This document shows positions 21,067 through 53,250 of a stretch of 64,000 nucleotides of DNA, piece after piece (position 1 is the first letter of the stretch; each line of letters begins with the position of its first letter). The notes below the pieces were generated by a model that worked only from the letters and a program-made list of their open reading frames with translations, was not told the DNA's origin and made no database searches. The position numbers and the translations under genes are program-made. Origin of the DNA: Eledone cirrhosa (lineage: Eukaryota); assembly GCA_964016885.1 (NCBI GenBank), contig OZ024740.1, forward strand, positions 243,536,001 through 243,600,000, in the 5' to 3' direction.

Positions 21067-22008
21067 ATCATCATCATCATCATCATCATCGTTTAACGTC
21101 CCTGTTCCACGCTTGCATGGGTTTGGACGGGGTTTTCCCACTTGAGGCAAGAGTGATTGTCTTGCTCGCATAGGACTGTCTGGCGGGTTTTCTACAGCTG
21201 GATGCCCTTCCTAACACCAACCACATTTACAGTGTGGGGCTGGGAGGTTTTTACCGTGTTGCCTACACGGCCACATTACAGCGTGGACTGTCTGGCGGGT
21301 TTTCTACAGCTGGATGCCCTTCCTAACACCAACCACATTTACAGTGTGGGGCTGGCAGGTTTTTACCGTGTTGCCTACACGGCCACATTACAGCGCGGAC
21401 TGTGTGTTTTTTTGTCGTGACACCTACACGATCTCATTTGTTTCAGCCTGGATGTTGTGGCACCAACATAACTTTACATTGAAAGGGGTGGTGTGGATGG
21501 GGTGGGGTGGTGGGACGGGGGTGTATTTTGTTAGAGATGCCTACTGACTGTAGTAGGTTTTACTTTGTATTTAGGTAAGGCGGGTCTTCTCTATTACTGA
21601 GTAGTGCCAAAGGTCTCGGTCCAGTGACATTGTCTTGGAGAGGTGTAAGTGTGTGAGGTCGGAATTTATCAGCTCGTCCCAGGTTTTTCTGGGTCTGCCT
21701 ACTCCGTAGCTACCGTCTATCTTTATTGCCCTGCACTTTGTTATACAGCTGTCGTCTTTCATGCGCATCACGTGACCATACCAACGTAGCCTTCTCTCGA
21801 GTAAACAACATCTGATCCCTCTTATTTCTAATTTTTTCCTTAGTTCGCTTATGCTTTGCCGTTCACGTATGTTACTATTACACATCCAGCGGAGCATGCA
21901 GGCTTCGTTCCTCTCTAGTCTGCGTATATCCTCTGCACACAATGCCCAGGTCTCACTGCCATGCAACATTGCTGTTCGTATGCAGGCATCATACAACCTG
22001 CCTTTCAT
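21067..22008 (-). mobile_element. 5'-truncated RTE-A with an about 113 bp tandem duplication in its 3' UTR
   Basis: ORF 21571..22008 matches the RTE C-terminus; 21173-21285 is repeated at 21286-21398. Confidence 0.92.
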
Positions 22009-22217
22009 ATATTTAATATAATAATTTCTAATATATAATAATTTCTAATATAGGCACAAGGCCAGGCAATTTGATACTCTATTCTATTGACATTGCAAGG
22101 ATGAAATGCAAAGCTGCTCTTAGCAATATTTGAACATAGGATCATGAATCCTAAAACATAATATTCCTTAAAATAGACACAAAGGTACAAGTTTCAGGGC
22201 TGGTTGTAGTTGATTTA

Positions 22218-22401
22218 TTGTATGTACTCAAATATAAGCCAACCTCCCCCAACCATTATTTTGTCTGAGAAATGGGCAAAAATCCAAAGCCAAGGCAACT
22301 AATCAAAACATTATGTTTAGATAGCGAATATAAGATGACGCCCCATTTTCCCATCAATTTTTTGGACACCTATTCCTCGGCTTATATTCAAATATATACG
22401 G
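22218..22401. mobile_element. Tc1/mariner-pogo type MITE remnant
   Basis: tgtatgtactcaaatataagcc ... ggcttatattcaaatatatacgg|TA inverted ends. Confidence 0.55.
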
Positions 22402-23242
22402 TAATGGCTGTAAGTATTTGACTGGTGCTTATTCTAAGATCGTAAATCGGCGGAGTTATTGGAACATTGGTCAGAATATTTTGTCCCATTTGTTCTTGCT
22501 TTCTGCATTCTGAGTTCAAATCTCACCAATGTCAATTTTGTCTTTCATTCTTTTAAGACTTGGTAAATAAATTACCTATCTATTCCAGTGGATTGCCAGG
22601 ACTGTTATATATTGAATAGGATACCTTGTGGTATCTGTTCAGGCACTTTGCATTCTAAAATTAAATTCTATCTAGAGTTAATCCCCTGACCATGGAACCG
22701 CACTTGATTATGCAAGCTGCAATGAATATCAGAGGATTGTAGCCATTTGCTACTACAGTTGAATGGCAAATTCAACCTTGGGGAGACTTGAACTCAGAAT
22801 ATAAAGAGACATAACTAGACACTGCAAGGTATTTGCTACTGCTGTTTAGAACATCAGATCAACCATGATATTATACTGTAGACCTATGATTAGAGACTTA
22901 TGATTATAGACATATGATCAAAGGTCTTCCACCTATGACAATCCTATTTTTTTTCAAACACACTGTATCTAGAACTATTCATAATTGTCGCCCCACAGCC
23001 AGTCCACCTGGACCGCAGGGTGGCCAGCGCATGGGCCCCCCATTTGCTCACAATAGTGAGAGACAGGTTGAGCAGGAGAGATGGAGGCAGTGACTGGGTG
23101 TTTGGTTCTTTTGTGTTTGAACCTGATGTATATATGTGTATATAAGAGAGAATGAGTCTTTCCCACTATCAGCACAGGCATATATAAACACTCACTAGTA
23201 TTTCTAAGTGTCACCTCTAAGTCCCACAATAGTACTTGGCTG

Positions 23243-24410
23243 ATCATTATCATCATCATCATCATCAGCGTTTTACGTCCGTTCTTCCACGCTAGCATGG
23301 GTTAGACGGGTTGTCCTGTTGTGAGCAGTGTCTGGTCGGCTGACCATGCCTTGCTCATACAGGAACTGATTCTGGCTTGATTTCTACAGCTGGATGCCCT
23401 TCCTAACACCAACCTCATTTACAGTGAGTGCTGGGTGCTTTTTCGTAGCGCCTACACGTCCACTTTACAGTGTGGGCTGGGTGCTTTTCTGCCGTGGCAC
23501 CTCCACGACCACCTTGCGGTGGGGGGTATGGGGCATATTGTCTATATGCTTCAGCTTGTACCCATGGGAGGTCGGGTACTCTGTATTACTGCATGACGCC
23601 AGAAGTCACGGTCGTGTGTCATTGCCTTTGAGAGGTGTAATTGGGTAAGGTCGGCTTTTATCACCTCATCCCAGGTCATCTTGGGTCTCCCCCACTCCGC
23701 GGTTTCCATCAACTTCTAGTGCTCTGCACCTTTTTATGCAGCTGTCATCCTTCATACGCATCACATGTCCATACCAGCGTAACCGCCTCTCCTGCACACA
23801 GCATTTGATTCCTCTTATGCTCAGTCTCTCTCTCAATTCATTTATGCTTTGTCGTTCACATATATTACTGTTACACATCCATCGGAGCATGCAGGCTTCG
23901 TTTCTCTCTAATCTACGTAAGTCTTCCACCTTCAGCGCCCAGGTCTCACTACCATGCAACATTGCTGTTCAGATACACGCATCATACAGTCTGCCTTTCA
24001 TTCTGAGGGAGAAGCCTTTTCCAGCTAGCAGTGGTAGTAGTTCCCTAAACTTCTTCCATCCCGTTCTTACCCTAGTTATTGTACTTTCTGAACACCCACC
24101 TCCGCTGCTAATTCGGTCACCTAGGTAGCAGAAGCTGTCTACTGTTTCTACAGAGCCCTCCCAGAGATTGGTGGTACTTGTTTCCTGTGGCTGTTTGCTG
24201 CTTGCTGTCTCAGCACAGCTGCTGCATGTGAAGCCTACATTCTTAGTTAAGCTTCCTGTGATCCCGCTACATCTCTTGTGTACCCATTGTTTGCATATGG
24301 GGCAGAGAATGGAGTCCCTACCTACACCTTTCCTACATACTGAGCAAGGCCATTTCCCTGAGGGGATCTGGGTTCTGTTTTCTCGTCTACTTACAAGGAC
24401 CTTAGTCTTT
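23243..24410 (-). mobile_element. 5'-truncated RTE subfamily C
   Basis: MLHGSETWALKVEDL...RRLRWYGHVMR; (CAT)n tail. Confidence 0.92.
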
Positions 24411-27745: not shown

Positions 27746-28041
27746 TTAAAAACAAATAACGAAACGAAATTAAATTTCGTTTCGTTTGTAACTCACTTTT
27801 GTATGACTGACGCTTAAACAATTAAGTTAAAGATGTACATCCATATATGTATACTGAAATACTAGTATGTATATGAATACACACACGTATACATATGTAG
27901 GTGTACCAAGTTTTTTCACTGGTCACTTTACTGTGAGTGGCCAGCTATTCTGTATGTAAACACACAGACAAACCGGTTTTTAGAGTCATACTGGTTTTTG
28001 AGGAAACACCTCTCCTCTATTCTCCAGAAAGCCAGACAAGG

Positions 28042-28086
28042 AATATTGAACTAGTTTCGTTGTTGTTACAACTCATCAGCAATATT
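28042..28086 (-). ncRNA. Minimal type I hammerhead ribozyme
   Basis: aatattg CTGATGA gttg-taacaa-caac GAAA ctag TT caatatt. Confidence 0.85.
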
Positions 28087-28742
28087 TACCTATCTTCCGG
28101 CCTCTCTAGAGAATCGTAAAAGCACATATCGTTATATGCTTTTTCTATGAAAATTAGTAGTGGGCAGACTAATTTGCATAGAGTGTGAGTAAGTACCGGT
28201 TCAACGGAGACGATAAAAACAAATAACGAAACGAAATTAAATTTCGTTTCGTTTGTAACTCACTTTTGTATGACTGACGCTTAAACAATTAAGTTAAAGA
28301 TGTACATCCATATATGTATACTGAAATACTAGTATGTATATGAATACACACACGTATACATATGTAGGTGTACCAAGTTTTTTCACCGGTTTGTCTGTGT
28401 GTTTACATACAGAATAGCTGGCCACTCACAGTAAAGTGACCAGTGAAAAAACTTGGTACACCTACATATGTATACGTGTGTGTATTCATATACATACTAG
28501 TATTTCAGTATACATATATGGATGTACATCTTTAACTTAATTGTTTAAGCGTCAGTCATACAAAAGTGAGTTACAAACGAAACGAAATTTAATTTCGTTT
28601 CGTTATTTGTTTTTATCGTCTCCGTTGAACCGGTACTTACTCACACTCTATGCAAATTAGTCTGCCCACTACTAATTTTCATAGAAAAAGCATATAACGA
28701 TATGTGCTTTTACGATTCTCTAGAGAGGCCGGAAGATAGGTA

Positions 28743-28787
28743 AATATTGCTGATGAGTTGTAACAACAACGAAACTAGTTCAATATT
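28743..28787 (+). ncRNA. Minimal type I hammerhead ribozyme
   Basis: aatattg CTGATGA gttg-taacaa-caac GAAA ctag TT caatatt; perfect 7 bp stem I, palindromic stem III. Confidence 0.85.
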
Positions 28788-29032
28788 CCTTGTCTGGCTT
28801 TCTGGAGAATAGAGGAGAGGTGTTTCCTCAAAAACCAGTATGACTCTAAAAACCGGTTTGTCTGTGTGTTTACATACAGAATAGCTGGCCACTCACAGTA
28901 AAGTGACCAGTGAAAAAACTTGGTACACCTACATATGTATACGTGTGTGTATTCATATACATACTAGTATTTCAGTATACATATATGGATGTACATCTTT
29001 AACTTAATTGTTTAAAGAAAACTTTATTATAT

Positions 29033-32399: not shown

Positions 32400-35300
32400 T
32401 GTCTGACCTTTCTAAAAATAATCTTCTCGTAAACTTTCCTAACCCAACACCCACACACCACCGTTGCTATTTGGTCCAATCATAATTCAGTGGTTTATAG
32501 TATGTTTCTCTTACCAATCTCTATCAAAAAACCACCACCTCGGCTATTACTCCATAAGTTTAGACCTGGTTGCTTTTCGATATGCTAAATGGACTTCACA
32601 ATTTGGAGAGTCTGAACAATCTGAACATTCAATGACAATGTGAAAGATAAAGATAGATTCACCTCCCGCTGCCGGACGAGAATGCAAGGACTCCTCTTTA
32701 TTTCAGACATGGATGGCCAACATAATTACATCCCCCCCCCCCCCCGGCTAGGTGGAGTAGGAATTATGTTAGCAGAAAAATGGGTAGATAAGGTAATTGC
32801 CGTAAATAGTGTGAACGACAGAATAATTAAAATAATTGTTTCTATTTTAGGCACAAGGCCAGCAATTACCCAGTACATTACTGGTACTTTATTTTATCGA
32901 CCCTGTAAGGATGAAAGGCAAAGTTAACCTCGGCAGGATTTGAACTCAGATCATAAAGGGACGTAACTATGCTGGAAAGCATGTCCGACCCTCTACCAAT
33001 ACTGCCAATTCACCATACTAGTCCTAAATAGAACTACTGTGACAATAATATCTGCTTATGCACCCCAATCTGGCCTACCTGGCGTTATAAAAGACAGCTT
33101 CTATGAGTCGCTAATGATCACTACCTTCCAAATAACCATGACTGCATAATTATTGCTGGCGACCTAATTGGTTATGTTGGACAACATTGTGATGGCTATG
33201 ATGGAATCCATGGAGGCTATGGGTTTGGTACTAGAAATGAGGAAGGCTTCAGAATCCTGGAATTACGTGACGCTAATAACCTAACTATCTGTAACACAAA
33301 CTTCAAAAAACAAGACAATCACTTGATCACCTATAGATCAGGGGAACACGCCAGCCAGATAGAGTATATCCTTATTAGAAGACGTGACAGAGTGTCTGTT
33401 GTAAACACTAAATCCTTCCCCTGTGAAGAATGCACCTCCCAACATAGCCTCATAGTTAGTGACCTCATAGTCAGGACTAGACGTACTCGATGACAGAGGA
33501 GGACTACCCTGAGGAGATAAATATCAAAATTGAAGGATCCCACAGCCAGTAACAAATTTAAAAGTATATTCTTGATGCTTTTGACAGTAAGGAAGAGCAA
33601 TTAGAGATGTACAACATACAGGAACAGTAGGAATTTTTGAAAGTTAATCTGCTGAAGGTGACAGATGAAATCTGTGGCTGGAGCAGACCTAAGGCAGGAG
33701 GAGAGTAACTTGGTGGTGGAACAGAAAGGTGGAGGAGACAATCAAGGCCAAAAAGCAGGCTTGGAAAATATGGCAGGATGGAGAAAGTAGAGAACACTAT
33801 CAAGTGGCCAGGAGGGAAGCTAGGAGACAAGTGTACCTTGCAAGAAGGGAAACAGAGGAAAGAAAGTTCAAGCATGTTCTACAAGGACCAAAAACGCGAG
33901 GACCAAAAACGTGAGGTGTTCAGGATTGCAAGACAATGTGTCAAGGAAAACTGTGATATTGTCGGGGAGAAGTGTGTCCGTAATGATGATGGTGTACTTG
34001 CCCTCACTGATACTGATAAGAAGATAGCTTGGAAGTGTCACTACGAGAGACTACTAAATTAGGAGAATAAATGGGAAAAAGATAGTCTGCCCCAAATCGA
34101 TCCAATAGAGGGACCAGCGGTGCAAGTTAAAGGTAGTATAATAAGTAAGGCAATCAAAGATATGAAGACAGGCAAAGCAGCTGGGCCTTTGGAGATAGTT
34201 GCTGAGATGTTGAAAGCATCTGGAATGGTGGGACATACTATAGTCACCCGGATAGTAAACCAAGTAATACAGAATGGAGTCATACCAAATGACTGGTGTA
34301 GCAGCATTATCGTTAACTGCTACAAGGTTAAAGGAGATGCTCTAGATAGGGGAAACTATAGAGGAATTAAGTTAGCTGACCAGGTCATGAAGGTCACAGA
34401 AAGAATTGATCTAGATGAAATGCAGTTTGGGTTTGTGTCAGGTAAAAGTACCACAGATGCTCTTTTCCTTGTACGACAACTACAGGGGAAGTACCTAGCT
34501 AAAAGTAAAGCCCTCTACTTTGCTTTTGTTGACTTGGAGAAAGCCTTTGACAGAGTCCCCTGCTCCATTATCTGGTGGGCTCTTAGAAAACTAGGTGTAG
34601 ATGAATGGCTTGTGAGAGCTATACAAGCCATGTATAAAGAAACAGTCAGCAAGGTTAGAATTAACAACGAATATAGTGAAGAATTTAGCATAAAAGTTGG
34701 TGTTCATCAAGGCTCTGTCCTTAGCCCCCTCCTATTTATTATTGCCCTTCAGGCTATAACAGCGGAGTTTAAGACTGGCTGCCCATGGGAACTTCTAAAC
34801 ACAGGTGATCTAACTCTCATAGCTGAATCTATGGCTGAACTAGAAAAGAAATTCCAAACATGGAAGCATGGCCTAGAATCAAAAGGCCTTAAAGTTAACT
34901 TGTCTAAGACTAAAGTTCTAGTATGTAGAAAGGAAAATAGGGCACAGGTGCCCTCTGGGAAATGGCCATGCTCAGAGTGTAGGAAAGGAGTAGGTAGAAA
35001 CTCCATTTTATGTCCCAAATGCAAACTATGGGTACATAAAAGATGTAGTGGGATCACAGGTAAGCTATCTAAGAACGTAGATTTTATATGTGGCCGATGC
35101 TCAGGTGCAATAATTAGCAAATGCCCACAGGATACTGGCTCCTTCTATTGCCAAGATGGTTCTATAGAAATAGTGGACATTTTCCGTTACCTGGGTAACA
35201 AAATCAGCAGTGGTGGAGGGTACTCTGAAAGTAGAGTAGCTAGAGTCAGAACGGGATGGAAATAGTTCAGAGAGCTTATACTGCTGTTGGCCACAAAAGG

Positions 35301-36121
35301 TTTCTCTCTAAAAATGAAAGGCAGCAATGTTAAACAGCAATGTTACATGGCAGTGAGACATGGGCATTGTGTGCAGAGGACCTGCACAGACTGGAAAGGA
35401 ACGAAGCATGCATGCTCCATTGGATGTGTAATAGTAATATGCGCGAACAACAAAACATAAATGAACTAAGTGAGAAATTAGGAATAAGAGGGATAGAATG
35501 CAGTTTACTTGAGAGAAGACTATGTTGGTATGGTCACGTGATGCGCATGAAAGATGACAGCTGTATAAAAAAGTGCAGGGCGATCAAAATTGATGGAAGT
35601 TACAGAGTAGGTAGACCCAGAAAAACCTGGGACGATTTGATAAATTCCAATCTTACACACTTGCACCTCTCTAAGACAATGTCACTGGACCGTGATCTTT
35701 GGCACCATGCAGTAATACAGAAAACCCGCCTTGCCTATGTACAAAGCGAAACCTACAGTCAGTAGGCACCTCTTAACCAAATATATACCCCTACTCCACC
35801 CTCACACTCCCACTAACACCACCCTTTCTCTGTAAAGTTATGTTGGTACCACAACATCCACTCCTAAATAAATGAGGTTGTGTAAGTGTCACAACGAAAA
35901 AACACACAGTCCACACTGTAATGTGGCCGTGTAGGTAACACGGTAAAAACCTCCTAGTCCACACTGTAAATGTGGTTGGTGTTAGGAAGGGCATCCAGCC
36001 GTAGAAAACCTGCAGACAGTCCTATACAAGTGAGACATGGTCGCCTGACCAATCTTGCCTCAAGTGGGACAATTCCCGTCTAACCCATGCTAGCGTGGAA
36101 GATAAAAGTTAAATGATGATG

Positions 36122-38675: not shown

Positions 38676-41540
38676 TCATCATCATCATCATCATCATCAT
38701 CATCGTTTAACATCCATGTTCCACGCTTGCATGGGTTTGGACGGGAGTTTTCCCACTTGAGGCAAGAGTGGTTGTCTTGCTCGCATAGGACTATGTGGCG
38801 GGTTTTCTACAGCTGGATGCCCTTCCTAACACCAACCACATTTACAGTGTAGACTGGGAGGTTTTTACCGTGTTGCCTACACGGCCACATTACAACGTGG
38901 ACTGTGTGTTTTTTTGTCGTGACACCTACACGATCTCATTTGTTTCGGCCTGGATGTTGTGGCACCAACATAACTTTACATTGAAAGGGGCGGTGTGGAT
39001 GGGGTGGTGGTGGTGGGACGGGGGTGCATTTTGTTAGAGATGCCTACTGACTGTAGTAGGTTTTACTTTGTATTTAGGTAAGGCGGGTCTTCTCTATTAC
39101 TGAGTACCGCCAAAGATCTTGGTCCAGTGACATTGTCTTGGAGAGGTGTAAGTGTGTGAGGTCGGAATTTATCAGGTCGTCCCAGGTTTTTCTGGGTCTG
39201 CCTACTCCGTGGCTACCATCTATCTTTATTGCCCTGCACTTTTTTATACAGCTGTCGTCTTTCATGCACATCACGTGACCATACCAACGTAGCCTTCTCT
39301 TGAGTAAACAACATCTGATCCCTCTTATTTCTAATTTTTCCCTTAGTTTGTTTATGCTTTGCCGTTCACGTATATTACTATTACACATCCAGCGGAGCAT
39401 GCAAGCTTCGTTCCTCTCTAGTCTGCGTATATCCTCTGCACACAATGCCCAGGTCTCACTGCCATGCAACATTGCTGTTCGTATGCAGGCATCATACAAC
39501 CTGCCTTTCATTTTTAGGGAGAACCCTTTAGCGGCTAATAGTGGTATAAGCTCTCTGAACTTTTTCCATCCAGTTCTGACTCTAGCTACTGTACTTTCAG
39601 AGCACCCTCCCCCACTGCTGATTTTGTCACCCAGGTAACGGAAGCTGTCCACTATTTCTATAGAACCCTCTGCGCAATTGAAAGAGCTAGTATTTTGTGG
39701 GCACTTGCTGCTACTTATTGCACCAGAGCACCGGCCACATGTAAAATCTATGTTCTTAGTTAGCTTACCTGTGATCCCACTACATCTTTTATGCACCCAT
39801 ACTTTGCATTTGGGACATAAAATGGAGTTTCTACCTACTCCTTTCCTACACACTGAGCATGGCCATTTCCCGGAAGGGACCGGCGCCTTATTTTCTCTCC
39901 TACAAACTAGAACTTTAGTCTTAGCCAGGTTAATTTTAAGGCCTTTTGATTCTAGGCCGTGCTTCCATGTTTGGAATTTCTTCGCTAGCTCGGCCATTGA
40001 TTCAGCTATGAGCGTTAGATCATCTGCGTATAGGAGTTCCCATGAGCAGCCGGTCTTGAACTCCACTGTTATAGCCTGAAGGGCAATAATAAATAGTAGG
40101 GGGCTAAGAACAGAGCCCAGATGAACACCAACTTTTACGCTAAACTCTTCACTATATTCGTTGTTAATTCTAACCTTGCTGACTGTTTCTTTATACATTG
40201 CTTGTATAGCTCTCACAAGCCATTCGTCAACACCTAGTTTTCTAAGAGCCCACCTTATAATGGACCGGGGGACTCTGTCAAAGGCTTTCTCCAAGTCGAC
40301 AAAAGCTAAGTATAGGGGTTTACTTTTAGCTAGGTCCTTCTCCTGTAGTTGACGTACAATGAAAAGAGCGTCTGTGGTACTTTTGCCTGGCACAAACCCG
40401 AACTGTATTTCATCTAGATCAATTCTCTCTCTGATTAGTTGCGTTATTACTTTTTCCGTGACCTTCATGACCTGGTCGATTAATTTAATGCCTCTATAGT
40501 TACTCCTATCTAGGGCATCTCCTTTACCCTTGTAACAGTTAATGATGATGCTGCTATGCCAGTCCTTCGGAACAACCCCATTCTGTATGACTTGGTTTAC
40601 TATCCGGGTGACCATGGTGTGTCCCACCGTTCCAGAGGCTTTCAGCATCTCAGCAACTATTTCCGAAGGCGCAGCCGCCTTACCCGTCTTCATATCTTTG
40701 ATTGCCTTACTTATTATACTACCTTCGACTAACACTGCTGGTCCCTCTATTGGATCGATGTGGGGTGACTGTCTTTCTCCCATTTATTCTCCTCATTTAG
40801 TAGCCTTTTGTAGTGACACTTCCAAGCTACCTTCTTATCAGCATCAGTGATGGCAAGTACGCCAATCATCATTAAGTACACACTTCTCCCCGACAATATC
40901 ACGGTTTTCCTTGACACATTGCCTAGCAATCCTGAACACCTCACGTTTTTGGTCCTCGCGTTGTAGAACATGCTTGAACTTTCTTTCCTCTGCTTCCCTT
41001 CTTGTGAAGTACACTTGTCTCCTAGCTTCCCTCTTGGCCACTTGATAGCCTTCTCTACTTCCCCCATCCTGCCATACTTTCCAAGCCTGCTTTTTGGCCT
41101 TGATTGACTCCTCCACCTTACTGTTCCACCACCATGTTACTCTCCTCCTGCCTACAGGCCTGCTCCAGCCACAGACTTCGTCTGCCGCCATCAGCAGGTT
41201 TGCTTTCAGGAATTCCCACTGTTCCTCTATATTGTACGACTCTAATTGCTCTTCCTTACTGTCGAAACCATCAAGTAATATGCTTTTAAATTTATTTCTG
41301 GCTGTGGGGTCCTTTAGCTTCCATATTTTTCTCCTGAGGATAGTCCTCTTCTGCTGTCTAGTATGTCTCGTCCTGACTATTAGGTCGCTAATTATCAGTC
41401 TATGCTGGGAGGTGCATTCTTCATGGGGGAGGGATTTAGTGTTTACAACAGACACTCTGTCACGTCTTCTGGCTTGTGTGTTCCCCTGATCTATAGGTGA
41501 TCAGGTGATTGTCTCGTTTTTTGAAGTTAGTGTTACAGAT
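38676..41540 (-). mobile_element. 5'-truncated RTE-A, very similar to the 1-3650 copy
   Basis: ORFs 39074..40783 and 40844..41455; (CAT)n tail. Confidence 0.95.
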
Positions 41541-42205: not shown

Positions 42206-43326
42206 ATCATCATCATCATCAACATCATTTTACGTCTGCTTTTCCCTGCTTGCAAGGGTGGGATGGGTCCTATTCAACACAGCATCTCTCCACTTGTCAC
42301 GGTCCTTCATCATCTCCTCCGTGAGTTTCAGCGATTTGAGGTCTGCTCTCACTACCTCCGCCCATGTTTTTTGTGGTCTACTTCTACTGCGTCTTCCTTA
42401 TACTGGGATTTCTTGACACTTCTTTACCCAGCGGTCATCCTCCATGCGCATCACATGTCCATACCATCTCAGTCTTCTCTCCTGCACACCACAACTTATC
42501 CCTCTTATACCCACTTTCTTTCTCAACTCGTCTATGCTTAGTCGTTCACGCACATTGACATTGAACATCCAACAGAGCATGCTTGCTTCATTTCTCTCCA
42601 GCCGTCGCATATCCTCTGCAGTTGCTGCCCATGTCTCACTACCACTATCGCGCATCTCACACAGGCATCATATAACCGTCCTTTCATACGCAGGGAGAAA
42701 CCCTTCTTTGTCAACAGAGGAAGCAGCGCCCTAAACTTGTTCCAGCCCGTCCTTATTCTGACCTCAGAACACCCCCTCCCATGCTAATCTGATCACCTAG
42801 GTACCGGAAGCTATCCACCACTTCTATAGAACCCACCTGCATTGGAAAAATGTGTCTATCACTGCGATTACTACTGCCAACTTTCCCTGTACATCTACTG
42901 CATACGTAGTTTTCCCTACCTGTTAGTTTGCCTGCTATCCCACTACATCTCTTGTGTACCCAAGATCTGCATTGCGTACATTTTATGGAATTTATGCCAG
43001 TTCCTTTTCTCCATATCGAACATGGCCATTTCCCTGATGGAATCAGAGTTTTGTCCTCTTTTCTACTCATCAACACTTTTGTCTTAGCTAGGTTCACTCT
43101 CAGTCCTCTTGCTTCCAACTGCTGTTTCCATAGCCAGAATTTATTCTCTAGCTCCTCTACTGATTCTGCTATAAGAACCAGATCATCAGCATAGAGAAGT
43201 TCCCATGGACAGCCAGTCTTAAACTCCTCTGTTATGGCTTGGAGGACTATAATGAACAAGAGCGGGCTGAGGACCGAACCCTGATGTACACCTACTTGTA
43301 TCTGGAATTCCTCACTAAACTCCATA
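42206..43326 (-). mobile_element. 5'-truncated RTE-B
   Basis: ORF 42753..43325 with GVHQGSVLSP and YADD; B-type short tail. Confidence 0.92.
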
Positions 43327-43875
43327 GAGAGAGAGATTTAAATCATTATTCAACAGGGTACTTAATACTTGGGATAGTAGAGTGTAACTATATTAGAGCC
43401 AGGCCACGACGGCTTAGCTCTTGCTAATTTGACAGTCAGTTCCTGACTAGTCTGGAATTAGCTGTTGAAATGGCATACATAATTTTGTTGGGGTATAAAG
43501 CTCAAAAGAATACATCCTAAGTTTAGTTTTTTTAACACAATTTTATTATTGTTAAATGTTACTTAGTGCATATTTATATGTCTATATATATACATAGTTT
43601 ATTGGTGTGTAACATTTGATACTTTGTTCCAGCTACTTGTTATATGTGTATATATATATGTGTATATAAGTATGTATACGTACATACATATATGTATACA
43701 GACGTACAGTAGTGTGTATATATATATACATACATGTACACATATATATATATGTACGTATGGGTTTACCGAACATTTATTATAATGTTCTGTTTGTTTG
43801 TAAACAAAGAGCCTGAATTAAGCCATACAGTGTTCGGCAACCATCGTTGCCCCTTTGTTCAACACTGACAAAGGA

Positions 43876-43918
43876 ACGATGAACTAGTTTCAAGCTTATT
43901 AGCTATCGTCAGCATCGT
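43876..43918 (-). ncRNA. Minimal type I hammerhead ribozyme (GUU site)
   Basis: acgatg CTGACGA tagct-aata-agctt GAAA ctag TT catcgt. Confidence 0.8.
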
Positions 43919-44314
43919 ATACCTTCCTGTCAGAGGATTGAATGTTTGAAAGTATATACTTTCCTTATGCATATTAATGGCTGAGCAGCCTAATTTGCAT
44001 ATCGAGTGAGTTAGTCGGCCGGGCGCACCGAAAACGATAAATGGAAAAGAATGAAACAAAATTTTATTTCTCACTCTTAGTACGGCTGATACTTAAATAT
44101 AAGTATATAAGTATGTATACGTACATACATATATGTATACAGACGTACAGTAGTATGTATATATATATACATACATGCACACATATATATATGTACGTAT
44201 GGGTTTACTGAACATTTATTATAATGTTCGGTTTGTTTGTAAACAAAGAGCCCAAATTAAGCCATACAGTGTTCGGCAACCATCGTTGCCCTTTTGTACA
44301 ACACTGACACAGGA

Positions 44315-44357
44315 ACGATGTACTAGTTTCAAGCTTATTAGCTATCGTCAGCATCGT
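44315..44357 (-). ncRNA. Minimal type I hammerhead ribozyme (GUA site)
   Basis: acgatg CTGACGA tagct-aata-agctt GAAA ctag TA catcgt. Confidence 0.8.
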
Positions 44358-44815
44358 ATACCTTCCTGTCAGATGATTGAACGTTTGAAAGTATATACTT
44401 TCCTTATGCATATTAATGGCTGAGCAGTTCCTTACTGTGGTTACTCCCAATTTAACCTGGGACTCACACACACATATATATGTATATAAAAAAAATATTC
44501 TTATGAAGAATTCGTCTCCTGATGATAAAACTTCAGTTCTTCCAGCAAGGGAACAGACAAAGGTAATGTTTTTGAATGCACAAAGCTGTGGAGGGGAACT
44601 GAAGCTCACAAGAGAACAGACAAAAGCTTCAAAAACATTATTTTTGGGGTTCCCTCGCTGTTTTAGTTTGGATTGCCTCGAGAGTGTAACCTTATTATAT
44701 AATGAAGCTGTCTGATGAGATCATGATACTGGTTACGTAAAATCACATGGCCACTGTCAACATTGAAAAATATATCACAGACTTTTTAACATCCACAACA
44801 ACTTTGCAGTTTTCT

Positions 44816-45234: not shown

Positions 45235-47880
45235 GATATAATCATCGTTATCATTTATATAGACATTATCAAGACCAGCAATTATCCCAGTAAAGTACCA
45301 GTAATGTACTGTGATAATTGCTGGCCTTGTGCCAAAAGTAGAAACAATTTATACAGACATTATATGATGATGATGATACACATACGCAAACATATTATGC
45401 TGAATGCTCTCCAAAGGTATTTCCCCTTTGCTCACTGACACACACACACACACATACAAATACACACACACAACCACACACATGTTAGCTAATCTAAATA
45501 TATATACTGTCCAGGCATTCAGATCATTTTCTAACTATATCGAAGCCGGAAGTGTATCCTTTTCAAACAAATCATGGCAATTTCTGATCAATACCTCATT
45601 GTAGTGAAAATATGTGTGTGTGTGTAAGTATTTGTGAATGTATACATGTGTGTGTATATATATATGTATGTAGATATCAATGAACTCACAATTAAAAGAA
45701 ACCCACCAGTCTACTGTAAGCACTCTCCCTGAAGGTAACCCAGCTAGGAGGTTGAAATCACAATTAGACATCATGGAGAGCAATTCTGCAGAGGGGAAGC
45801 ATGGACTGTTTAAGCCACAGTGAAGGTAACCTGTCCAGGGTAGTAATAACTCTGAAAAACAATTTACATTGCTGTAGATTTTGCCATCCACTGTGAAAGT
45901 AATCTATATAGATGCACAGTAACTCTGGTTACAAGGAAAGGGGGGGAGGAGATGTGGATTCTGCAAATCACAGTGAATGTAAACAAAACTCAAACTTTTA
46001 AAAATAATCCAGATTTAGAGGACAAATCTAAAAATGATTTCTAATTTAGGTACAATGCCAACATTTTGTGAAGAAGGGAAAGTTGATTATACCGACACTA
46101 GTACTTTACTGGTACTTATTGGAAAGATAAAAGGCTAGGAAAACAGCAAATCTGAATCATCATCATCATCATCATCACCGTTTTACGTCAGTTCTTCCAC
46201 ACTAGCATGGGTTAGACGGGTTGTCCTGTTGTGTGCAGTGTCTGGTCGGCTGACCATGCCTTGCTTATACAGGAACTGATCTGGCTTGATTTCTACAGCT
46301 GGATGCCCTTCCTAACACCAACCTCATTTACAGTGAGTGCTGGGTGCTTTTTCGTGGCACCTACACGTCCACTTTACAGTGTGGGCTGGGTGCTTTTTTG
46401 CCGTGGCACCTCCATGACTACCTTGCGGTGGGGGTGTGGGGGCATATTGTTTATATGCTTCAGCATGTACCCATGGGAGGTCGGGTACTCTGTATTACTG
46501 CGTGACGCCAGAAGTCACGGTCGTGTGTCATTGTCTTTGAGAGGTGTAATTGGGTAAGGTCAGCTTTTATCACCTCATCCCAGGTCATCTTGGGTCTCCC
46601 CACTCCGCGGTTTCCATCAACTTCTAGTGCTCTGCACCTTTTTATGCAGCTGTCATCCTTCATGCGCATCACATGTCCATACCAGCGTAACCGCCTCTCC
46701 TGCACACAGCATTTGATTCCTCTTATGCTCAGTCTCTCTCTCAATTCATTTATGCTTTGTCGTTCACGTATATTACTGTTACACATCCATCGGAGCATGC
46801 AGGCTTCGTTTCTCTCTAATCTACGTAAGTCTTCCACCTTCAGCGCCCAGGTCTCACTACCATGCAACATCGCTGTTCAGATACACGCATCATACAGTCT
46901 GCCTTTCATTCTGAGGGAGAAGCCTTTTGCAGCTAGCAGTGGTAGTAGTTCCCTAAACTTCTTCCATCCCGTTCTTACCCTAGTTATTGTACTTTCTGAA
47001 CACCCACCTCCATTGCTAATTCGGTCACCTAGGTAGCAGAAGCTGTCTACTGTTTCTACAGGGCCCTCCCAGAGATTGGTGGTACTTGTTTCCTGTGGCT
47101 GTTTGCTGCTTGCTGTTTCAGCACAGCTGCTGCATGTGAATCCTACATTCTTAATTAAGCTTCCTGAGATCCCGCTACATCTCTTGTGTACCCATTGTTT
47201 GCATTTGGGGCAGAGAATGGAGTTCCTACATACTGAGCAAGGCCATTTCCCTGAGGGGATCTGGGTTCTGTTTTCTCGTCTACTTACAAGGACCTTAGTC
47301 TTTGTCATGTTGACTTTGAGACCCTTTCTCTCTAGTCCCTGCTTCCAGGTTTGGAATTTATTCTCTAGTTCTATCATAGATTCAGCTATGAGTGCGAGGT
47401 CATCAGCATACAGAAGTTCCCATGGGCATCCGGTCTTAAATTCCTCCGTTATTGCCTGCAGGACTATGATGAACAGGAGAGGGCTAAGAACAGAGCCCTG
47501 GTGGACCCCAACCTGTACGCTAAATTCCTCGCTATACTCATTGCTAATCCTAACTTTGCTGACTGCTCCCCTATACATGGCTTGTACCGCTTTCACAAGC
47601 CATTCATCTACTCCTAGTTTTCGAATGGAAAGTGATATAGTATAGAGGGAATACAATCCTGCAAGACAACCTCTCTAGTGCTGGTGGTATATTAAAAAAT
47701 TTATAGCATTTAAAATGTTCCAACAATAAGTGAATGGCCTCTCAATATTTGAGGTTAGAGTGTAAATTATTATGTCTAAATGTACACCTCACCACATATA
47801 TATATATATATATATGCACACATACATGTGTGACTTTGAGAGTGAATGAGTGTGGAAAATGAATGTTATATGGTGATGAT
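45235..47880. repeat. Left arm of an inverted segmental duplication (partner 58275-61625)
   Basis: 45480-46157 and 47623-47875 are reverse complements of about 60770-61440 and 58455-58772. Confidence 0.9.
46158..47622 (-). mobile_element. 5'-truncated RTE-C with GAAT target duplication
   Basis: ORFs 46877..47656 and 46460..46870; gaat at 46154 and 47623; empty site at about 58700. Confidence 0.93.
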
Positions 47881-49049: not shown

Positions 49050-50595
49050 TACATATTTTCAACTGTAATACTGTACTATATATTTTCAACAGTAATACTA
49101 TACTATATATTTTCAACAGTAGTACTGTACTATACCTTTTCAACAGTAATACTGTACTACATATTTACAACAGTAATACTATACTATACTATACATTTTC
49201 AACAGTAATACTGTACTACACTATATATTTTAAACAGTAAGTAATACTGTACTATATATTTTCAACATTAATACTATACTATATATTTTCAACAGTAATA
49301 CTATCTATATATATAAAACTGTGTGTGTGTGAGTTTGAATCCCTAAAACTCGAGAAGCACCCAACCGACTGTTTTCAAACTTTACACATGTAATACTTAT
49401 GTTTCAGGGAGTGTTCTGAGCAAAATGTTTTTCGAATTTTCAATGCCCTAGGGATCGCATTAGGCGACTTAGCGATCTCTCTCTATAATTCTTAGTCTTT
49501 TTAGATAGATACATACATATAACGTCGCGCCCTTATAATATATGTCTGTGTGTCTGGCTGTCTGCATTACGTCACTTCCCTGAGGATGTCTGTCTGTGTG
49601 TATGTGTGTGTCTCTGATTTTGAATCCCTAAAACTCGAGAAGTACCCAACCGACTTTTTTCAAACTTTACATGTGTATTACTTAACTTTTTGATCCCCTA
49701 GGGCCTGCATTAGGTGAAAAACTGCGTTTTTTTCAGTTTTTTAGAGGATTTTTGAGGCGTTACGTCAGACCGATTTCCTTGAAATTGTAACTATGTATTA
49801 GTCAGTCTCTTCTTCATACCGTGAGCAAAGAAAATCCAACTTTTTTATGGCCTAGGGCCCGCATTAGGTGAACAACTTCATATTTTTTTAGCTTTTTAGG
49901 GAATTTTTGAGGCGTTACGTCGAGCCGATTTTCCCGAAATTTCAAGGCATATTATGCACATAAAAAAATTAATTTTATTGATCCCCTAGGGCCCGCATTA
50001 GGTGAAAACCTGCATTTTCCTTGCTTCATCAAGGAAAATCTTAAAGATTATCCAGCCATCAGAGTATTCGGTTTATTTTCTTTACATATTGTCCAGCCAT
50101 GTAGTTTTTCCACGATTAGGTCTGTTGGTGAGCCACGTTCCAAAATACTTTATCCCGGGTACCACTGCTAGTACTATATTTTTCAACACTGATACTATAC
50201 TATACTATATATTTTCAACAGTAATACTATACTATATATTTTCAACTGTAATACTGTACTATACTATATATTTTCAACAGTAATACTACACTATATGTTT
50301 TCAACAGTAATATTATACTATATATTTTCAAAAGTAATACTGTACTATACTATATATTTTCAACAGTAATACTGTACTATATATTTTCAATAGTAATACT
50401 ATACTATATATTTTCAACAGTAATACTGTACTATATATTTTCAACAGTAATACTATACTATATATTTTCAACAGTAATACTGTACTATATATTTTCAACA
50501 GTAATACTATACTATATATTTTCAACAGTAATACTACACTATATATTTTCAACAGTAATACTATACTATATATTTTCAACAGTAATACTATACTA
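49050..50595. repeat. About 27 bp minisatellite (tatattttcaacagtaatact[ag]tacta)n, split by the Helitron
   Basis: Arrays at 49050-49303 and 50172-50595. Confidence 0.9.
49304..50171 (+). mobile_element. Non-autonomous Helitron inserted in the minisatellite
   Basis: A|TCtatatatataaaa ... ccgggtaccactgCTAG|T; removing it restores the repeat unit. Confidence 0.75.
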
Positions 50596-51754: not shown

Positions 51755-53250
51755 TCATGATCATCACCATCATTTTACGTCCGCTTTTCCCTGCTTGCAA
51801 GGGTGGATCAGGTCCTCTTCAGCACAGCATCTCTCCATTCGTCACAGTCCCTCAACATCTCCTCTGTGAGTTTCAGTGATCTGAGGTCAGCTCTCACCAC
51901 CTCCACCCATGTTTTTTGTGGTCTTCCTCTACTGTATCTTCCTTCCACAGGAATTTCTTGGCACTTCTTTACCCAGCGTTCATCTTCCATGCGCATCACA
52001 TGGCTATACCAAGACAGTCTTCTCTCCTGCACACTACAGTTTATCCCTCTTATATGCAGTTTCACTCTCAACTCATCTAAGCTTGATTGTTCACGCACAT
52101 TGACATTGCACATCCATCAGAGCATGTTTGCTTCATTTCTCTCCAGCTGTCGCCTCTACTGTCTCTTCCTTCCACAGGGATTTCTTGGCACTTCTTTACC
52201 CAGCGCTCATCTTCCATGCGCATCACATGTCCATACCAACACAGTCTTCTCTCCCGTACACTACAGTTTATCCCTCTTATATGCAGTTTCACTCTCAACT
52301 CATCTAAGCTTGGTTGTTCACACACATTGACATTGCACATCCATCAGAGCATGCTTGCTTCATTACTCTCCAGCTGTCGCATATCCTCTGCAGTTGCTGC
52401 CCATGTCTCACTACCATGCAGCATCGCACATCTCACACAGGCATCATATAACCGACCTTTCATTCGTAAGGAGAAACCCTTCTTTGTCAACAGAGGAAGC
52501 TGCTCCCTAAACTTCTTCTATCCAGTCCTTATTCTAGATACTATGGCCTCGGAGCATCCTCCTCCCTTGGTAATCTGATCACCTAGTTATCAGAAGCTAT
52601 CAACTACTTCTATAGATCCTACCAGCATTTGAAAAATGTGTCTATCACTGACACTTCTACTATCAAATTTCCCTGAACATCTACCACATATGAAGTTTCC
52701 CTTCTTGTTAGTTTGCCTGCTATCCCACTACACCTCTTGTGTACCCAAGATCTGCATTTTGTACATTCTATAGAGTTTATGCCAATTCCTTTTCTACATA
52801 TTGAACATGGCCATTTCCCTGATGGAATCAGAATTTTGTCCTCTTTCCTACTTATCAACACCTTAGTCTTAGCTAGGTTCACTCCCAGTCCACTTGATTT
52901 CAACTGCTGTTTCCATAGCTGGAATTTATTCTCTAGCTCCACTACTGATTCTGCTATAAGTACCAGATCGTCAGCGGAGGGAAGTTCCCATGGGTAATCA
53001 GTCTTAAATTCCCCTGTTATGGCTTGGAGAACTATAATGAATAAGTGTTGCCTGAGGACCAATGAACTCCTACTTGTATCAGGAATTCCTCACTAAACTC
53101 CATTCTTACTCTCACTTTACTGACAGCTCCTCTGTACATAGCTTACACTGTCCTCACAAGCCATTCCTCTACATCTAGTTTCTTTAGGGACCACCAGATG
53201 ACAGATTGGGGTACTCTATCAAAGGCCTTCCCTAGGTCAACAAAAGCTAA
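51755..53250 (-). mobile_element. 5'-truncated RTE-B-like copy with an about 220 bp internal duplication
   Basis: ORFs 51808..52113 and 52077..52340 repeat the same C-terminal segment. Confidence 0.9.

Follow-up and report, generated by a model that had tools for sequence, protein, structure and literature searches.

Within a 64,000-nucleotide stretch of the Eledone cirrhosa genome (hereafter the window; contig OZ024740.1, positions 243,536,001 to 243,600,000), a short insertion on the minus strand carries two hammerhead ribozyme motifs in tandem. The question it raises is whether such a locus is itself the template of a monomeric or circular RNA, as an earlier note on this DNA proposed, or one copy of a repeat family with a life cycle of its own. 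Our reading, held with reasonable confidence, is that the locus is a 1.77-unit copy of a high-copy non-coding hammerhead repeat, likely a non-LTR retrozyme, likely mobilised by Penelope-like elements (PLEs) and likely transcribed from its own U6-like module. The locus is ordinary; the U6-type module, at the level of the family, would be the new trait.

Structure of the locus and its hammerheads

The insertion spans 43652-44428 and consists of approximately 1.77 units of a repeat labelled family A, with a 5′-truncated unit followed by one complete unit of 439 nt (Table 1). Its direct copies, 43652-43988 and 44093-44427, are identical at 319 of 335 aligned bases (95%) with a single 2-nt indel, and the 104 bases separating them are the single-copy remainder of the unit. 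The tandem unit of about 439 bp with two hammerheads described in the earlier note is thus borne out by two direct copies whose cores lie exactly 439 nt apart; of the extent given there, 43662..44427, the tandem stands but the real start is some 10 bases further left. The upstream copy breaks off just past the position of an octamer block described below, and the extra sequence at this 5′ junction has a core 14-mer with no other occurrence in the window or in the other loci examined. The flanks are microsatellite, and no target-site duplication is visible by eye.

Stop-free frames across the unit have no coding appearance, and there is no protein-coding open reading frame (ORF). The predicted monomer folds more stably than all 100 shuffled sequences (z −6.8), a TA-rich hairpin accounting for part of this stability. 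The hallmarks of non-LTR retrozymes at the sequence level, namely consecutive units of 150-450 bp, a type I hammerhead in each, GC below 50% and a self-paired monomer, are all present.

Table 1 Features of the locus, of the rest of the window and of related loci. Positions are those of the window, except where a locus label and contig are given.
Feature	Position	Strand	Remarks
Upstream, 5′-truncated copy	44093..44427	−	TATA-like block 44398-44391 kept, octamer block lost
Hammerhead 1, type I	44303..44372	−	C3 at 44351; cleavage triplet GUA; cleavage predicted between 44321 and 44320
Hammerhead 2	43864..43933	−	C3 at 43912; cleavage triplet GUU; cleavage predicted between 43882 and 43881
Predicted 439-nt monomer between both predicted cuts	43882..44320	−	35% GC, circle fold with 63% of bases paired
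Segment equivalent to the optional ~57-nt 3′ tail of other copies	44031..44092	−	contains all T4 runs of the unit
Octamer block ATGCAAATTAG	43990..44000	−	identical to the host U6 gene block at −77
TATA-like block GTATATAC	43952..43959	−	host −31 rule predicts a start close to 43928, 16 nt ahead of the core
38-nt extra sequence at 5′ junction	44429..44466		core 14-mer unique within the window and the loci examined
Family B element	27814-29015		577-nt perfect inverted repeat; octamer blocks at 28650 (+) and 28179 (−), hammerhead cores at 28750 (+) and 28079 (−), G-C at the base of stem II
LINE with RVT_1 and PHD-like finger	39074-40783	−
Related LINE copies	~100-2700, 21500-24400, 33100-35750, 42250-43340, 46400-47700, 51800-53250
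27-bp minisatellite arrays	49053-49312 and 50197-50595		similar array in L091
Hydra-type 713-aa PLE family	L119, L122 (G000:C1:244612770-244616483; C3:235111676-235115389)
Family C sites	L202, L203, L204 (G000:C1:1269926, 12257207, 12257500, 17037516)		stem III palindrome AUGCAU, same module

In both copies the minus strand reads stem I acgatg/catcgt, CUGACGA, stem II U-agcu-aaua-agcu-U and GAAA-CUAG-U-H, with stem I continuing outward across internal loops. This is a type I core, with CUGANGA, GAAA and NUH, three helices and the open end on stem I. All motifs that the earlier note listed (stem I, CUGACGA, stem II and GAAA-CUAG) are found in each copy, together with the difference it saw at the cleavage base, GUA in one and GUU in the other. 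Scanning the window on both strands for the motif gives five hammerhead-like matches, at 44351 (−), 43912 (−), 28750 (+), 28079 (−) and 56225, the last of them weak, with long and seemingly unpaired stems II and III. The Rfam hammerhead families have no match at the locus, either at the gathering score or at E values up to 10, and we infer that the Rfam models miss this minimal hammerhead variant. Matches to Rfam miRNA and snoRNA families were discarded, being below the gathering score and with alignments that track the TA-rich part. Elsewhere in the window are a LINE, which we take to be RTE-like, with related copies, and minisatellite arrays.

Two further hammerhead families, B and C, occur in the same genome and allow the fold to be compared. 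Across 11 sequences (eight of family A, one of B and two of C) the core is invariant save for position 7. The 14 named hammerhead pairs are paired in 94% of cells and show two-sided change in 10 cases, a result matched by none of 500 shuffles, the covariation lying mostly between families and so representing few independent events. Stem III is palindromic yet variable: families A and B have ACUAGU, family C has AUGCAU, and the hammerhead of a PLE has AGUACU. Pairing of two such palindromes into a dimeric active fold, suggested in the earlier note, gains support from the predicted energies of the natural two-copy transcript: −152.3 kcal/mol as a double hammerhead and −135.9 kcal/mol as two monomeric folds, a gain of 16 kcal/mol, with a free optimum of −154.0 kcal/mol. 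The monomeric active fold lies 7-8 kcal/mol above its optimum.

The G10.1-C11.1 pair that closes stem II, highly conserved in hammerheads (PMC4209133), is absent in family A; a U-U takes its place in 55 of 56 distinct copies (79 before duplicate removal) and is therefore fixed in the family. The cleavage triplets of these copies, GUA and GUU, stand at 28:28, a ratio biased by the choice of 30 loci for their resemblance to the GUU copy. With U-U at 10.1-11.1 and a stem III of 1 bp, a ribozyme that once worked might now be blocked, leaving a catalytically dead satellite that spreads without cleavage; the conservation of the lost pair and the missing Rfam match would fit, as would the inactivity of eight of nine predicted Xenopus dimers in vitro, one having cleaved (preprint 10.64898/2026.07.22.740005). 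PLE hammerheads cleave poorly in vitro as well (PMC4209133). However, the axolotl hammerhead HHR_Amex2 has the same U-U in stem II and cleaves, at 22% for the monomer and more for the dimer (PMC7229834), the core does not vary among A, B and C while their stems show compensatory changes, and the near identity of copies reported below speaks for recent spread. We regard a dead satellite as very improbable.

Copies, insertion shapes and Penelope-like elements

The 3.0-Gb genome contains 40,322 exact matches to the hammerhead core pattern, families A and B pooled, while a reversed control gives only 6, so the motif is not due to chance. A 241-base query returns 3,022 candidates, the best of 40 scored being 96-97% alike, and the family has therefore spread recently. 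The insertion at 43652-44428 is an ordinary copy, one of tens of thousands dispersed through the genome.

The shapes of these copies are those of a particular class of retroelement. Among the 30 closest loci, the 3′ end falls near unit position 335 in 18, extends as a tail to 365-395 in 9 and lies elsewhere in 3, so that 27 stop at one of two fixed 3′ positions, with variable 5′ ends. An inverted copy is present in 18 of the 30, and a TA-rich 3′ flank likewise in 18 by a crude test that is negative for the locus itself. Arrays of 31 units (family B, period 466) and 7 units (family A, period 422-426) are found, with inverted copies adjoining both. PLE insertions are described as partial tandems with an inverted 5′ copy, an optional tail and (TA)n targets (PMC8557442), and each of these features is found in the repeat copies. 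The family B element in the window is, judging by its arrangement, a PLE-type inverted insertion (Table 1). Tandem hammerhead units, a huge family, no ORF and PLE-type insertion shapes uphold the retrozyme reading of the earlier note, and the repeat is very probably a retrozyme-type element.

Candidate partners are plentiful. The genome has 10,595 GIY-YIG candidates, and ORFs with RVT_1 and GIY-YIG are present. A young Hydra-type family has long, near-identical ORFs of 713 aa; the protein is not recognised by Pfam and carries the motifs RW, DKT, CxCX5C, CxxC and CxH of the Hydra clade, as listed in PMC8557442. The terminal repeat of this family has, by eye, a hammerhead-like fold in which CAGAAGA replaces CUGANGA. 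A Neptune-like PLE (L090, L094, L095, L098 and L105) has in its 3′ region a minimal hammerhead in which stem II again ends in U-U and stem III is the palindrome AGUACU; CCAAT- and TATA-like motifs, and not the octamer, stand before it. PLE fragments adjoin several hammerhead loci, but across TA repeats; since PLEs and hammerhead repeats both target (TA)n, we give this adjacency no weight as evidence.

The pseudo-LTRs of Hydra- and Neptune-clade PLEs resemble the repeat closely, with the same partial tandem, inverted 5′-truncated copy, optional 3′ tail and (TA)n targets, and with a minimal hammerhead with palindromic stem III (PMC8557442, PMC4209133). The copies could accordingly be pseudo-LTRs, solo or in tandem, that an autonomous PLE has shed, amplified within PLE transcripts and by tandem expansion at the DNA level with no circular stage. 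Such an origin would account for insertion shapes identical to those of PLEs and for the hammerhead of the same build, U-U and palindromic stem III included, in the Neptune-like PLE, and it has a parallel in Xenopus, where 24 of 57 retrozyme families match known transposable elements, nearly all of them PLE termini (preprint 10.64898/2026.07.22.740005). In contrast to a pseudo-LTR, the Eledone unit has neither an RT nor a GIY-YIG ORF and no sequence in common with the terminal repeats sampled: no terminal repeat resembling it occurs in 95 PLE loci (45 GIY-YIG and 50 Hydra-type, the latter from two families of 30 and 20 loci), a part of the PLE families among many thousands of loci. No ORF runs into the family A unit in 60 hammerhead loci, and the neighbouring PLE fragments are set apart by the TA repeats. 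Nor was the octamer module found in two sets of PLE 3′ regions, those of 20 loci from the second Hydra-type family and those of the hammerhead-bearing Neptune-like family. On the PLE families sampled, a shed pseudo-LTR is, in our estimate, a rather improbable source, and we retain the retrozyme.

With the non-LTR retrozymes of mussel, coral and axolotl (PMC7229834, preprint 10.64898/2026.07.22.740005), the repeat shares tandem units of 150-450 bp, GC below 50%, one type I hammerhead per unit, the lack of an ORF, a self-paired monomer and a genome that holds PLEs. It differs from the descriptions in these sources in that its unit of 439 nt falls at the upper end of the size range and its copies have clear PLE-type inverted partners and 3′ tails. 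A further difference is a host U6-type module, retrozymes seeming to lack promoters according to the review PMC7761336.

A U6-like module before the hammerhead

In families A and B the block ATGCAAATTAG is followed after 29-30 nt by G(T/C)ATATA, the module beginning 88-100 nt before the hammerhead core. Three U6 types, the best U6atac and the only RNase MRP gene carry a relaxed form of the motif, composed after viewing the host genes, with the octamer block at −76 to −78 and TATA at −31; this form is absent from 8 of 8 U1/U2 loci, from the one RNase P gene and from two other U6 loci. On inspection, 7 of 27 U6 matches and 1 of 6 U6atac matches have the module; we take the remainder for pseudogenes or disrupted copies. 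Several copies of a tandem U6 array (L142, L143 and L145-L148; G000:C19:31.79-31.83 Mb) are altered upstream of the TATA block, this region being replaced by a common interspersed repeat. The host U1 and U2 genes often have a TATA-like block near −31, and the RNase P RNA gene (L189, G000:C24:12936134), which lacks the U6-type module, has a U1/U2-like TCAG element upstream.

The strict module pattern has 26,931 matches genome-wide and 9 in the control. Of the first 100 matches listed, 95 are family A or B by eye, four are new sequence and one is something else. Among 30 hammerheads taken without selection, 22 keep the octamer, some of these lying in one array. Searching by the module alone led to the third hammerhead family, C, of about 330 nt, and thereby acted as a forward test: a hammerhead core is found at +99 in all four sites, from three loci. 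The body of family C resembles A and B no more than shuffled sequence does (8/200 and 30/200), whereas A and B are weakly homologous in both spacer and body (2/200 and 1/200 shuffles). One module site outside the three families (L205, G000:C1:5415183) has a TATA block and two octamer blocks at a distance of 52 nt from each other, but neither a hammerhead nor an identified RNA gene downstream. At another locus (L134:993-1260, minus strand), two family C fragments ending at the TATA block lie in TA repeats and directly precede a 5′-truncated Hydra-type PLE, an arrangement that could reflect a template switch or insertion into a TATA run.

Applying the −31 rule of the host genes places the predicted starts 16 (A), 29 (B) and 26 (C) nt before the core, at or within the 5′ arm of stem I. 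In family A, T4 runs occur only just before the next putative promoter (in 44031..44092, starting at 44061, 44048 and 44034 on the minus strand), and these are possible Pol III stop signals. Family C has T6 there, and family B has T5 there and elsewhere, runs that would limit Pol III read-through. Measured against a type 3 Pol III promoter, both blocks are as in the host U6 and MRP genes, and the spacing differs: 29-31 nt between octamer and TATA in the repeats against 34-36 nt in the host genes, about 5 nt short. A TCAG element of U1/U2 type stands 25 nt before TATA in family A, as in one U1 gene, and is absent from B and C.

The shared blocks may serve another purpose. The repeat may have no promoter and be transcribed by host read-through only, the octamer and TATA blocks being RNA hairpin signals for the PLE protein or an inherited remnant. 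The short spacer suits this reading, as do the weak homology of A and B and the statement in PMC7761336 that retrozymes seem to harbour no promoters; furthermore, the octamer arm forms a hairpin in A, B and C, and so do the TATA blocks. Against this reading, the 5′ octamer arm is unchanged to the letter and matches the block of the host U6 and MRP genes, while its partner arm differs between families, and the two-block pattern is expected by chance only nine times per genome. We consider a promoterless retrozyme unlikely, though not strongly so. For the retrozyme with a module of its own, the chances that the module works as a promoter appear evenly balanced from the sequence evidence.

Small-RNA-gene promoters have precedents in hammerhead repeats. 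Newt satellite 2 has an octamer plus a proximal sequence element (PSE), and the schistosome satellite promoter is of the A/B-box type. Both satellites, newt satellite 2 with an snRNA-type Pol II promoter and schistosome Sm-alpha with a Pol III promoter, are hammerhead repeats with such a promoter inside the repeat, according to work cited in PMC2220036. Unlike these, the Eledone module matches U6, U6atac and MRP (type 3 Pol III) rather than U1 and U2, and it occurs in three families. In the mostly non-subscription literature searched, Repbase and Dfam lying outside it, we found no published description of a cephalopod retrozyme or of a U6-type promoter in a retrozyme, and the part of the PMC4209133 supplement that was searched has no cephalopod entry.

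Proposed cycle and implications

The module bears directly on whether the locus is a template. The proposal in the earlier note that it serves as one fares poorly: it is a single insertion among tens of thousands, and its sole intact module (44000) lies between the hammerheads. With the upstream octamer lost, a 439-nt product requires read-through from outside, and the locus is therefore probably an offspring of the cycle and not the source of a circle; that 43652-44428 is an active source seems improbable. Since the genome itself already contains the junction, short reads from circRNA-seq would look alike for a circle and for tandem read-through.

The cycle that we propose would run in arrays. 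The module would initiate a transcript just 5′ of a hammerhead, and some transcripts would pass the weak T4 runs into the next unit. There, the palindromic ACUAGU stem III would pair two hammerheads so that a 439-nt monomer is cut out, which a host ligase, for example RtcB, could circularise. A Penelope-type RT/GIY-YIG protein would then nick (TA)n DNA and copy the circle more than once round, yielding insertions of 1.x to about 30 units, 5′-truncated and often with an inverted partner. This outline follows the published retrozyme model, as set out in the discussion of PMC7229834. What we would add is the inheritance of the promoter: by cutting and closing, the circle would carry the promoter of the next unit, so that a promoter upstream of the start would be preserved through RNA. 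The alternative readings overlap in part with one another. The complete proposal, a retrozyme with its own promoter and the full cycle, we advance tentatively, at somewhat less than even confidence.

At the level of the families, the module suggests a start site, a polymerase and a purpose. Fixed at 88-100 nt before the hammerhead and like that of host U6 genes, it points to where transcription may begin, to which polymerase may be responsible and to two short blocks that may direct it. A module common to three families and to the host U6 and MRP promoters would explain how the repeats get transcribed, and it suggests what the ribozyme may be for, namely to keep a promoter that lies upstream within the RNA that is copied. 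The shapes of the insertions, being of PLE type, in turn support Penelope mobilisation in an invertebrate, a matter that preprint 10.64898/2026.07.22.740005 states was not examined there. The family-level result touches two points left open in PMC7761336, the transcription of animal retrozymes and the element that mobilises them.

It is conceivable, if somewhat short of probable, that the three families took over a host U6-type promoter, with the ribozyme and the circle carrying this external promoter through RNA. The repeats would then be, with the same tentativeness, Pol III retroposons that promote themselves, pass through circular RNA and ride on Hydra- or Neptune-type PLEs. A promoter outside the transcribed sequence is lost when an ordinary SINE-like transcript passes through RNA; retrozymes could keep it, if the takeover is real.
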